A DNA stretch of 64,000 bases from the NCBI GenBank assembly GCA_964632315.1, contig CAZWEM010000009.1, forward strand, positions 32,001 to 96,000, given 5' to 3'. The first letter of the stretch is position 1, and every line of letters starts with the position of its first letter. Shown one piece after another: positions 2,487 through 13,872 of the stretch. Under the pieces are notes generated by a model that was not told the origin of the DNA, did not search any database, and saw only the letters and a list, made by a program, of their open reading frames with translations. This DNA is from an uncultured archaeon. GTDB taxonomy: Archaea; Asgardarchaeota; Lokiarchaeia; Sigyniarchaeales; SOKP01. The position numbers and the translations under genes were made by a program.

Positions 2487-3525
2487 CTATAGTCTCTTAA
2501 TAATTAACTCAGCCATTCTATTTGAGAAGCCCCACTCGTTATCATAGTAGGAAAGTATAAATACTTCATCTTCAATGACTTTAGTCCACATAGAACTAAA
2601 TACAGAACTATGGGAGTTTCCAATAATATCATGACTCACAATAGGATCTTCCACGTAGTCTAATATTCCTTTTAAGGCACCCATGGATGCTTCTTTCATT
2701 TTAGCATTTACTTCTTCAGGAGTGGTTTTCTTTTCAACTATTGCTTTCAAGTCAACTACACTCCCATCTATGGTGGGAACTCTTATAGCAATACCGTCTA
2801 ATTTACCACTGAGTTCAGGAAATACTAAACCAATTGCCTTAGCAGCTCCAGTGGATGTAGGAATCATATTTTGAGCAGCAGCTCTGCCCCTAATCATCTT
2901 TTCAGGTGCACCTGCTCTAGCAATATCCGCTGTAGATTGATCGTTGGTGTATGAATGAATAGTTGTCATCAAACCATATTTGATGTTGAAATTTTCGTTC
3001 AGAACTTTTACAACAGGGGCTAAGCAGTTCGTCGTACATGAAGCATTTGAAATGATTTTATGCTCATCAGTTATTTTATCATCATTACATCCTAAAACAA
3101 CTGTAAAGTCGGGATTTGATGCTGGAGCGCTGATTAATACTCGTTTAGCTCCCGCAGTTAAGTGTTTAGATGCTCCATCTCTATCAGTAAATCTGCCAGT
3201 GGATTCCACTGCAACATCGATATTATTTTGACCATGTGGAAGATTTGCTGGATCTCTTTCTGCTGTTATTGGGATCTCCTTACCATCGATAACTAAAGAG
3301 TGTTCTTTAGCCTCAACTTTTCCTTTAAATTTCCCAAATACGGTATCATACTTTAATGCATAAGCTAGATATTTTGGATCGAAAAGATCATTAATCGATA
3401 CAATATCTATGTCATTCCAGTAGTTAGCGTATACTGCGCGAAAGAAGAGTCTTCCGATTCTGCCGAAGCCATGATTACTCCGTTAGCGAAGAGCTTAACG
3501 GATTTATACTGACTCGTTTCGCCAT
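2487..3525 (-). CDS. gap: Class I (bacterial/eukaryotic-type) glyceraldehyde-3-phosphate dehydrogenase, 335 aa after removing a 31-nt intron; exons 3525-3504 and 3472-2487
   Basis: Spliced N-terminus MAKRVSINGFGRIGRLFFR; YALKYDTVFGKF; catalytic SNASCTTNCLAP; YDNEWGFSNR. Exon 2 is open and in frame with the track ORF 2487..3209. Confidence 0.95.
3473..3503 (-). other. Putative bulge-helix-bulge intron in gap mRNA (31 nt)
   Basis: 5'-GUCA GUAU AA|A UCCGUUAAGC UCUUC GCUAACGGA GUAA UC|A UGGC-3'. Exon helix GUCA/UGGC, central helix GUAU/GUAA (one G.A mismatch), 3-nt bulges AAA and UCA, intron stem UCCGUUA/UAACGGA. Canonical cuts give AUA AAU GGC (I-N-G). Confidence 0.8.
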
Positions 3526-11142: not shown

Positions 11143-11179
11143 TTCGGTTGAGTTCTCATTTTTTTTAACTCAACTTCAT
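11143..11179 (-). promoter_or_regulatory. Eukaryote-like SECIS element 3' of mvhD
   Basis: AUGA-A-GUUGAGUU-[AAAAAAAUGAG]-AACUCAAC-C-GA: AUGA/GA quartet, 8-bp stem, A-rich 11-nt loop. Outer pairing AUGUGUU/AACACAU at about 11118-11191. Confidence 0.88.
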
Positions 11180-11197
11180 CAGGAACACATTAATTAT

Positions 11198-11665
11198 TCA
11201 TGTCTTGGCTTTTTTCGCTGCCGTATCAGGTCGTAAGGGACTGGGACCTAATTCACGTATGGTTTTATCAAATGCAGTCGCTTCTTGTTGAAATTTTTGG
11301 CCTTCTGCTGCGGTACAATATCCCAAGTGGATTCTATTTTCACTAAGTCCCATTGATTTGAGTACTTCCTTGGTATATTCGACTTCTCGATACGCAAAAT
11401 AATTTCCAGTCTCATAATCGCATTCTTTAGGGTATCAACCAACAACCATTACTCCATCCGCCCCTCGTCCAAAGGATCTCATTATTAAATCAGAATCGAC
11501 CCTTCCCGTACAAGGCACTAATATCACGCGAATTGAGGTTGGATATTGAGCTCTAATTGTGCCTGCCATATCTGCACTGCCATATCCTCATTTTTAGAAG
11601 ACTTTCGAGATGAAAGTCTCATTCCAACACAGGAAGGCAATGATCTTTATATCTTCTTCTGCCAT
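11198..11665 (-). CDS. mvhD: Hydrogenase iron-sulfur subunit D (MvhD/VhuD/FlpD) selenoprotein, 145 aa; Sec16 (UGA 11590-11588), Sec67 (UGA 11437-11435); 30-nt intron 11621-11592
   Basis: Spliced: [47 protein letters not shown]...GADGVMVVGUYPKECDYETGN...CTAAEGQKF...ELGPSPLRP. Absent from the ORF track. Confidence 0.93.
11592..11621 (-). other. Putative bulge-helix-bulge intron in mvhD mRNA (30 nt)
   Basis: 5'-UCCUGUG UUGG AA|U GAGACUUUC AUCUC GAAAGUCUU CUAA AA|A UGAGGA-3'. Central helix UUGG/CUAA, bulges AAU and AAA, 9-bp intron stem, in-frame UAA. Canonical cuts give UGU UGG AAA UGA (C-W-K-U). Confidence 0.82.
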
Positions 11666-11679
11666 GATTATTTACCTCT

Positions 11680-13647
11680 TTACTCCTCTATGGGTAATAA
11701 TTCATCGATTAAAGCATTATATTGTACATCCCTAAAGTAGGTCAATTCAATTGCCTTTGAGGGACAAATTGCAGCACATGTTCCACAGCCCCTGCATCTA
11801 ATTAAATCAACTACAATGTTTCCCTTTTCATTAATTGAAATTGCGGTATAGGGACAAGCTTCTATGCATTTATAACATTTAGCACACCGCTCATCCGAAG
11901 GACTAGCTCTTATTAATTCCATCATGTATTCACCTTTTCCCATTGGAATTGCTGCTGTGGATGCTGCTCCCTTAGCTTGACTAACCGCTTTATCAATTTC
12001 TTTTTGGCCTTGTGCAGAACCACAGATATAAATTCCAGGAACTTTCGTGCTAATTGGATCCAAGCGAGCATGAAATTCTTTTAAGAATCCATCTGGACTT
12101 TTTTCCATGTTTAGTACTTTAGCGATTTGATTTGTTCCCTCAGATGGTAAAGACGCTGAAGAGAGAACGACCATGTCAAATTCTTGGGTCACAATTGTAT
12201 CAGTCCCTACTGGTTCAAATTGAACGATTAAATTCTTTGTATCTGGATCTTCTTCAATTTTTCCGACAAGACCTTTAACAAAGACAACTCCAGCATCTCG
12301 AGACCGTCGATAGTATTCTTCATAATCTTTTCCTGCACATCGCATGTCGATATAAACGCATAGTATTTGCGAATCAGGATGTTCAGATTTAATTAATTTC
12401 GAATTCTTTAGTGACAGGTTACAGCAAATTACTGAACACCACGCATTTTTTGTAACATCTCTACTTCCAACACAATTTATGAATAAGATCCTTTTTGGTC
12501 TCGTAGAGTCGGAAGGACGTTTGAGGTGTCCAAACGTAGGACCATTTGGTGCTATAATTCGTTCTAATTGGATTTGTGTTATTACATTATCATAAGTTCC
12601 GTATCCATAATCAGGACCTTCGTAGAGGTCCCAACCCGTAGCGACTATAATGGTACCAACCTTTAATTCGACAACTTCATCTTGTAAGCTAAAATCAACC
12701 GCATCTTCTTCACAAGCATCAACGCATCCAAAACATTCGACGCAATATTCTCTCGCAATATCATAAACAGCGGGAACGGCTTGAGCAAAAGCGATGTCAA
12801 TACACTTTCTAGCAGAAAGACCTTCATCAAAATAATTGGATACATAAATTGGGCAAGCGTCAGTGCAAGCACTACATCCAGTACACTTATCTTCAATGAC
12901 AAAGCGAGAATGTCTTTTTACTTTCACTTCAAAATTCCCAATGTACCCATCTACTTGTTCTACTTCACTGAATGTTAAAATCTCTATATTTTCATGACGA
13001 TTAGCTTCAAGCATTTTAGGCCCGAGTATTCATATTGAACAATCATCAGTTGGAAAAGTTCTATCAAGTTGCGACATCCTCCCTCCAATGGTCGTATTCT
13101 TTTCCACCAAGTAAACTTTAAATCCTGAATCTGCTAAATCCACTGCTGCTGATAATCCAGAAATGCCCCCTCCAACCACTAATGCAGCTGGTTCTACAGG
13201 AACAGTCATGGTAGGTACGTCTTCTAATAATCTTGCTCTTGAAATTCCCGCTTTAATTAACTCTATTGCTTTTTGGAGGGCTTTCTCGCGTTCTTGTTGA
13301 TGAACAAATGAGCAATGTTCCCTAATATTTACAAACTCCAGATAGCGTGGTGGTAAACCTGCTTCTTTCAAAATTGCATGAAATACTGGTTGATGAGTTT
13401 TTGGTGTACAAGCAGCCACGACAATTCTTTCTAATTTGGCTTCTTCAATTTCTTCTTTAATGTACGCGGATCCTCCTTCTGTACACATAGAAAGATAATC
13501 AAAAGCTTTTACTCCAGGAAGTTTATTTAACTCTTCCACGATGGATGGAATGTCTAAAATTCCCGCAATATTGATACCTCAGCGACAGACGAAAACGCCA
13601 ACGACAGATAATCTGTTTTCATCATCCTTGGTCTGATTTTCAGACAA
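11680..13647 (-). CDS. hdrA: Heterodisulfide reductase subunit A selenoprotein, 655 aa; Sec23 (UGA 13581-13579), Sec206 (UGA 13032-13030)
   Basis: TTG start after GGGTG. GVFVCRUGINIAG and RTFPTDDCSIUILGPKM place UGA at conserved Cys positions. All segments are in one frame, joining the track ORFs 13030..13539 and 11680..13014. GGGISG FAD motif and ferredoxin motifs present. Confidence 0.95.
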
Positions 13648-13872
13648 GATATACACCCTTGCTATTAAATCCTCCTAATTTTTTGAAATTTAATGCTTAT
13701 TAATTGTTTAATTGATAATATTTCATTCAATTAAGTTATTGATATGTTAAATTAAGCTTTTTATTAAAGTTCAATTGTTATTCTAAATCACCAAGGTAAA
13801 AGAAGAATTTTTCAAAACATAACAATGCATTTTTCCCGAGCGATCCCCTTAATTTTTCATAAATTAAGAGTT

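Follow-up and report, generated by a model that had tools for sequence, protein, structure and literature searches.

A putative 30-nt BHB mini-intron one base before a selenocysteine codon in the mvhD/vhuD gene of an Asgard archaeon

The 64,000-nt stretch of DNA analysed here (hereafter, the window; all coordinates are window positions) belongs to a 4.45 Mb genome of 32.9% GC, designated G000. On its minus strand, mvhD/vhuD occupies positions 11198–11665, directly 3′ of hdrA and in the same orientation, with a 14-nt spacer between the two genes (Table 1). A domain search finds NAD_binding_8, FAD_oxidored and Fer4 domains in the hdrA product, whose homologues carry the name heterodisulfide reductase subunit A and come from Promethearchaeota/Lokiarchaeota MAGs. 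Exon 2 of mvhD matches the FlpD/MvhD profile PF02662 (E = 4.7e-38), PDB chains of MvhD match the product with E = 1e-28 to 1e-31, and the N terminus encoded by exon 1 agrees with the N termini of orthologues in sequence comparison. The gene has a second selenocysteine (Sec) codon, TGA at 11437–11435, and ends on a TGA stop at 11200–11198. Both UGA codons that would be read as Sec align with cysteines of Cys-type paralogues (CNWC and GCH..C).

Table 1. Genes, putative intron and predicted RNA elements at the hdrA–mvhD/vhuD locus
Feature	Window positions	Strand	Description
hdrA	11680..13656	(-)	heterodisulfide reductase subunit A-like flavoprotein, two in-frame TGA codons
mvhD/vhuD exon 1	11622..11665	(-)	from ATG 11665 to the first two bases (AA) of a Lys codon
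Putative BHB mini-intron, 30 nt	11592..11621	(-)	U, 9-bp stem, 5-nt loop, stem, CUAA, AA
mvhD exon 2	11198..11591	(-)	third Lys base, Sec UGA 11590-11588, GYGSADMAG..., FlpD/MvhD domain
Whole predicted BHB fold	11575..11642	(-)	outer helix, h, central helix H, two 3-nt bulges, stem h′
Predicted outer exon–exon helix	11642-11636 with 11581-11575	(-)	CAUUGCC with GGCAGUG
Predicted exon–exon helix h	11634-11628 with 11590-11585	(-)	UCCUGUG with UGAGGA (UCCU..GUG/UG.AGGA)
Predicted central helix H	11627-11624 with 11597-11594	(-)	UUGG with CUAA
Predicted bulges	11623-11621 and 11593-11591	(-)	AAU and AAA
Predicted intron stem h′	11620-11612 with 11606-11598	(-)	GAGACUUUC with GAAAGUCUU, 9 bp; loop AUCUC
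lokiSECIS-like element	11144..11179	(-)	AUGA, 8-9 bp stem GUUGAGUU/AACUCAAC, A-rich 12-nt loop, then ..GA

Read directly from the genome, the mvhD frame runs through FLCW, the insert codons NETFISKVF and a stop, and then KUGYG. The stop is an in-frame TAA at 11596–11594, inside an insert whose 3′ end lies one base (A11591) short of the first Sec UGA. ORF listing and translation bear out both the coordinates and the frame that an earlier note on this DNA had given for the gene. None of the 11 paralogues shown and none of the orthologues departs from the C-x2-[C/U] motif at the corresponding point. Our search finds 12 MvhD-domain (FlpD) loci in the genome, and each of the 11 inspected reads C-x2-C or C-x2-Sec here. 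The closest of them, L003 on contig C2, is 55% identical, contains Sec and reads CWK-Sec-GYG without an insert. Within the genus, the insert is present in 3 of 42 genomes and missing from the other 39. At least 13 orthologues in the genus read TGTTGGAA followed by [A/G]TGAGG, which is the junction predicted for G000, and a near-identical, intron-less metagenomic allele (L168) has the exon borders of G000, and its sequence, TGTTGGAAATGAGGATATGGCAGTGCAG, matches the predicted spliced product at every position. The comparison with mvhD/vhuD paralogues and relatives that the earlier note had called for thus finds the uninterrupted junction, as predicted, in L003 and in orthologues.

The region around the insert folds at −26 kcal/mol (z = −3.7 to −5.6; 0 of 200 shuffles equally stable) into a predicted bulge–helix–bulge (BHB) structure. 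Its central helix H consists of three Watson–Crick pairs and one G·U pair, and on each strand a 3-nt bulge follows 3′ of this helix, the orientation found in tRNA introns. Helix h between the exons, made up of two wobble pairs, a 1-nt bulge and 4 bp, contains the first Sec UGA, in agreement with the earlier proposal that this codon takes part in exon–exon pairing. The outer exon–exon helix has 3 bp in all six alleles counted and extends to 6–7 bp in the 30-nt alleles. Cuts placed in silico after the second base of each bulge, A11622 and A11592, remove exactly 30 nt, 11621–11592, and the product reads UGU UGG AAA UGA GGA, which is C-W-K-Sec-G, the conserved C-x2-[C/U] motif. The predicted exon junction is TGTTGGAA joined to ATGAGG, also written TGTTGGAA joined to ATGAGGATATGG, or TGTTGGAAATGAGGATATGG. 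That canonical BHB cuts would restore C-x2-Sec, as had been claimed, is supported both by this anatomy and by the exact predicted junction in intron-less orthologues and a paralogue.

The choice of register deserves some care. It had been cautioned that 26 or 28 nt might be excised instead, and this caveat holds for G000, in which both nested registers pair as well as the 30-nt register by a simple pair count. Those two registers keep only one or two of the four central pairs in the remaining three 30-nt alleles, compared with three in the 30-nt register; across all four 30-nt alleles scored, the 30/31-nt register is the only one that never falls below 3 of 4 H pairs. Three alleles with 31-nt inserts, introduced below, likewise keep 3 of 4 central pairs in the homologous register by our reading of their folds. 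Among all alleles, G000 has the best BHB.

Homologous inserts are present at L013, L014, L085, L099, L198, L199 and L200. At the same point as in G000, a 30-nt insert is found in the two sister species G016 and G035 and on the metagenome contigs L085 and L099; all four have CAA where G000 has TAA, such that the stop occurs in G000 only. The metagenome pattern scan that yielded these contigs was loose: at least 119 stretches matched, and among the 80 loci listed only L085 and L099 are real. A class-wide pattern search adds 31-nt hairpin inserts in the same slot in two genomes of another genus, G129 (L198) and G152 (L199), and a GC-rich 31-nt insert is present in this slot in a member of another family, G041 (L200). 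The G152 allele is also found on three ENA contigs (L201–L203). The G129 and G152 genes are orthologues of the insert-free G000 paralogue L003. The slot, which follows TGYTGGAA, is occupied in three MvhD lineages. All of these 30-nt and 31-nt alleles fold in the same register, and canonical cuts would again give C-W-K-Sec.

Across six alleles, the structure of the insert rather than its sequence appears to be conserved. In these alignments, 91.7% of the cells pair, compared with 39–52% when the partners are slid against each other. In the intron stem, both partners have changed at three pairs and one partner at four. Covariation scores 0.194, compared with 0.154 in shuffles, and 15 of 500 shuffles reach this value; these are six related alleles, and covariation support from so few, related sequences is modest. 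Five of six alleles have a central helix of three pairs plus a G·A mismatch, G041 has three pairs plus C·C, and two alleles have an A·A mismatch in the intron stem; the mismatched alleles would be relaxed BHBs, which are predicted EndA substrates. The flanking exon sequence also goes with the intron. Helix h has 8–9 of 9 pairs in all seven intron alleles, compared with 5–8 (mean 7.1) in 20 intron-less alleles, and all seven share GCC-TTC-CT[C/G] ... GGC at synonymous sites. The insert is, on these comparisons, not the strain-specific lesion lacking stem covariation that the earlier note had named as its refutation: six other alleles carry it, three of them with 31 nt, and the stem covaries.

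The trees of the two genes in the operon disagree. In the mvhD exon tree, G000 groups with a clade of G016, G035 and L099 (support 97/98). G006, which has no insert, is nested within this intron-bearing clade, which indicates intron loss or conversion; along with lacking the insert, G006 has altered first codons in exon 2. The hdrA tree places G000 elsewhere, with G003, G036 and P0002/P0003, and in the hdrA part of a single-origin test a clade of the intron-bearing alleles is rejected (AU p = 0.03 and 3e-6). The conflict between the trees (11198–13656 compared with L013–L035 and L167–L173) suggests interspecies recombination inside the operon. We take the conflict to reflect recombination and not to speak against homology of the inserts; the mvhD exons support the clade. 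A mobile-element origin was also examined. A search with blastn-short gives no second copy of the intron in G000, as would be found for a mobile, MITE-like repeat, and a target-site duplication was rejected, the borders having only a 4-nt UGAG repeat that is one base out of register.

The genome encodes candidate enzymes for both steps of tRNA-type splicing. Two EndA paralogues (PF01974 loci in the regions C28:34842–35066 and C8:41146–41400) and one RtcB locus (C26:2315–3622) are all above curated cut-offs, and tRNA-Sec is present according to ARAGORN. Two EndA paralogues, consistent with an (alpha-beta)2 enzyme, occur in most Asgard genomes, and tRNA genes in these genomes are heavily interrupted (bioRxiv 10.64898/2026.10.13.758758). 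Introns are carried by 18 of the 29 tRNA genes that ARAGORN finds in G000, and many further tRNA genes are probably missed owing to several or non-canonical introns. Some of the reported ‘introns’ are implausibly long, at more than 1 kb. Seven small contigs of the assembly (C90, C103, C105, C106, C109, C112 and C113) are very GC-rich, compared with 33% GC elsewhere; they are probably the 8.6% contamination reported for it.

Two more genes in G000 contain inserts of similar size. In the GAPDH gene (window 3473–3503, minus strand), a 31-nt hairpin insert shifts the frame at the start of the protein, between MAKRVSIN and GFGRIGR of the NAD-binding motif. Its removal in the BHB register, with an exon helix GAGUCA/UGGCUU and 3 of 4 pairs in the central helix, gives MAKRVSINGFGRIGR and restores the motif; the same sequence is found in 13 insert-free relatives in the genus, including G016, and among the 42 genus genomes searched the insert looks specific to this species. 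In a bacterial-type LeuRS gene (C41:26254–26283, minus strand; L188:2855–2884), PMGYD and SFGLPAEN are separated by a 30-nt insert that contains an in-frame TAA. The insert folds with a complete 4/4 central helix (UAUG/CAUA) and a 7-bp stem, and the flanking ORFs match TIGR00396 at positions 1–76 and 77–779. Together, the MvhD, GAPDH and LeuRS inserts suggest that ~30-nt mini-introns form a population dispersed among coding genes. Genome-wide BHB and ORF-repair scans of G000 show no enrichment: their counts equal those of controls with shifted partners or a mirror layout, the signal being swamped by fusions of neighbouring genes and by short 5′ exons; the scans are no evidence on the number of such introns. 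They contain a hint at L = 30 with an in-frame stop, where 17 matches compare with 6 and the LeuRS case is among the 17.

In the public RNA runs searched, the locus itself does not turn up. Searching public runs for the locus gives only small-share RNA runs, with contigs from relatives that have uninterrupted alleles; these contigs show the junctions TGTTGGAAGTGAGGTTACGG and TGCTGGAAATGAGG, and their exon 2 is only ~70% like that of G000. One 2025 run of unrecorded kind matches the unspliced genomic sequence without a difference over the part that it covers, which takes in some of the insert. Looking up the 44-aa MvhD ORF by exact match gives no spliced RNA contigs for G000 or G016, and the G152 MvhD ORF leads only to DNA metagenome contigs, with the insert present.

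The layout of selenoprotein signals at the locus follows a published one. In Lokiarchaeota, an HdrA–VhuD pair shares one common lokiSECIS 3′ of vhuD, and the architecture of this element, just 3′ of vhuD, comprises AUGA, a ~9-bp stem, an ~11-nt loop and GA (PMC4989117, Mariotti et al. 2016). We matched the G000 element to this description. The element is conserved across 11 orthologues, whose stems differ by compensatory changes; the variants are GUUGAGUU/AACUCAAC, ACCGAGUU/AACUCGGU, GCUGAAUU/AAUUCAGC and GUUGAACU/AGUUCAAC. The sole SECIS-like element lies 3′ of mvhD, and hdrA is without one of its own. The shared 3′ lokiSECIS is real, and it is already published (PMC4989117).

From sequence comparison and predicted folding, we consider it likely that the 30 nt at 11592–11621 are a BHB mini-intron in mvhD/vhuD that is spliced from the mRNA by the tRNA-splicing enzymes. 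In this scheme, hdrA and mvhD would be transcribed together, and the transcript would fold by pairing of UUGG with CUAA, formation of the 9-bp intron hairpin and pairing of exon 1 with exon 2 across the Sec codon. A two-subunit EndA would cut after the second base of each 3-nt bulge, RtcB would join the exons, and the joined reading C-W-K-Sec-G obtained in silico would be translated with Sec at the two mvhD UGAs by means of the single lokiSECIS, following the published Lokiarchaeota model. Unspliced mRNA would terminate at the TAA after 23 codons. Expression would hence need splicing plus two Sec insertions served by one SECIS, as the earlier note had argued and as the anatomy, the homologous inserts, the selection on the exons described below and the presence of EndA, RtcB and tRNA-Sec together suggest. 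The intron would be one of several mini-introns in protein genes of G000, and most likely it is a tolerated insert, located at a point where the sequence of the exons lets a BHB form.

Splicing might also serve regulation. The balance between EndA cleavage and ligation could control MvhD and, by severing hdrA from the 3′ SECIS, also HdrA; the two UGA codons of hdrA, the position of the only SECIS-like element and the burial of the Sec UGA in helix h would fit such a site, and gating of HdrA synthesis by splicing follows from the shared SECIS as a matter of logic. The intron is missing from most relatives that share this operon and SECIS layout, and in G006, inside the intron-bearing clade, it has been lost or converted away; we regard a regulatory site as improbable. 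With absence from 39 of 42 genomes and from G006, the distribution is patchy, as is more readily expected of a tolerated insert than of a conserved regulator. A wider reading, in which the EndA/RtcB balance sets the output of both subunits of the electron-bifurcating complex and the slot is re-invaded by intron mobility, is speculative and unlikely. Re-invasion of the slot would account for its occupation in three MvhD lineages as well as for the disagreement of the hdrA tree with the mvhD tree.

Alternatively, a 30-bp nonsense insertion could have made the G000 gene a pseudogene, with one of the 11 other MvhD paralogues doing the work. The in-frame TAA, which occurs in G000 only, and the choice of twelve FlpD-domain loci, including the 55%-identical Sec-containing paralogue, would be in keeping with such an inactivating lesion, and the state of the gene is not. 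It is otherwise intact, having kept both Sec codons, the conserved Cys positions and the SECIS. Between G000 and G016, the exons differ with dN 0.078 and dS 1.14 (dN/dS ~0.07), and both Sec codons are retained; mvhD has therefore been constrained for as long as these two intron alleles have diverged. Against the intron-less G025, dN/dS is ~0.05 over a branch of 0.24 substitutions per site. By these ratios, the mvhD exons are under strong purifying selection. The length, bulges and hairpin of the insert have been kept across the same dS of ~1.1, with 70% identity between the G000 and G016 inserts compared with ~41% at synonymous sites, and the allele with the stop is the one with the best BHB. 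Frameshifting 31-nt inserts occupy the same slot in three other intact genes. We judge a lesion to be quite improbable.

Even less probable is that the insert is translated as a 10-residue loop (NEAFNTKVTQ) tolerated in MvhD, with a recent nonsense mutation in G000. In keeping with a translated insertion, the reading frame stays open in three of the four 30-nt alleles, and two differences between G016 and L099 are synonymous. The loop would split the invariant C-x2-[C/U] motif, and a length of 31 nt shifts the frame, so that the inserts of G129, G152 and G041 cannot be translated through. Between G016 and G035, there are three amino-acid changes in ten insert codons, compared with an exon pN of 0.023; amino-acid change in the insert is about eight times faster than in the flanking exons, and two of the three changes belong together as a single compensatory pair. 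This pattern of sequence change is that of an RNA stem and not of a peptide. Ribosomal bypassing or another translational recoding that skips the 30 nt, in the style of phage T4 gene 60, is suggested by a hairpin and a stop codon within a coding gap of tens of bases and is scarcely credible, given that the take-off and landing codons do not match (UGG or AAU before the gap, AAA after it), that the stop lies at the far 3′ end of the gap and in G000 only whereas the T4 gene 60 type has it right after take-off, and that the bulge positions and 4-bp spacing fit EndA geometry and not a hop. The pseudogene, translated-insert and bypass readings each conflict with several results, and even jointly they are unlikely.

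If the predicted splicing takes place, tRNA-type mRNA splicing would operate in Asgard archaea, in a selenoprotein of central energy metabolism, and mvhD expression would take two unusual decoding steps one after the other, in which non-spliceosomal splicing is followed by recoding of UGA to Sec from a SECIS that two genes share. It would bear on how BHB introns arrive and persist and on intron tolerance in the archaeal relatives of eukaryotes; were the wider reading true, routine mRNA splicing by tRNA machinery would be a trait of a lineage near the eukaryotic ancestor. A practical consequence is that gene callers will truncate or split genes with such inserts.

Our predicted intron can be compared with several known systems. 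The locus shares with the published Lokiarchaeota arrangement (PMC4989117) the tandem hdrA–vhuD genes, several UGA codons, two Sec positions in VhuD, a single SECIS and a UGA stop; the intron is not described there, and here the first Sec codon would come into its proper context only after removal of 30 nt. In the literature searched, we found no report of BHB introns in Asgard protein genes, and cbf5 of Crenarchaeota was the only archaeal protein gene with a documented BHB intron. The closest known case is thus the pre-mRNA of cbf5, which encodes a pseudouridine synthase and has a BHB intron whose splicing was shown by RNA (PMC2738675). Both cases concern a short, BHB-bounded intron in a protein-coding mRNA for the tRNA splicing endonuclease and ligase, with patchy gain and loss among relatives. 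The mvhD/vhuD case, in which splicing is predicted, differs from cbf5 in its selenoprotein host, its Lokiarchaeia-type Asgard lineage, its minimal size of 30–31 nt and the occupation of the slot in three separate MvhD lineages, and in its place one base ahead of a Sec codon in a selenoprotein transcript of two genes. The non-canonical tRNA introns of Asgard archaea and Thermoproteales (bioRxiv 10.64898/2026.10.13.758758; PMC11291895) resemble it in the predicted EndA and RtcB machinery, short hairpins, relaxed BHBs, repeated gains and persistence where the exon permits the motif. Unlike them, the mvhD intron has an mRNA as its host, so its excision must also keep the frame. In the HAC1/XBP1 mRNA of eukaryotes, IRE1 cuts at two stem-loop sites, and in XBP1 a 26-nt intron is removed with a change of frame and the exons are ligated by RtcB in metazoa. 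Here too a non-spliceosomal endonuclease acts on a short intron in a cytoplasmic mRNA, a likeness for which we claim no homology; the IRE1 endonuclease and its recognition motif are different, and that splicing is stress-regulated. What is new relative to these systems is the lineage, the gene, the minimal size, the three occupied MvhD lineages and the Sec-adjacent splice site in a transcript whose two genes share one SECIS, and the predicted mechanism itself is already known.
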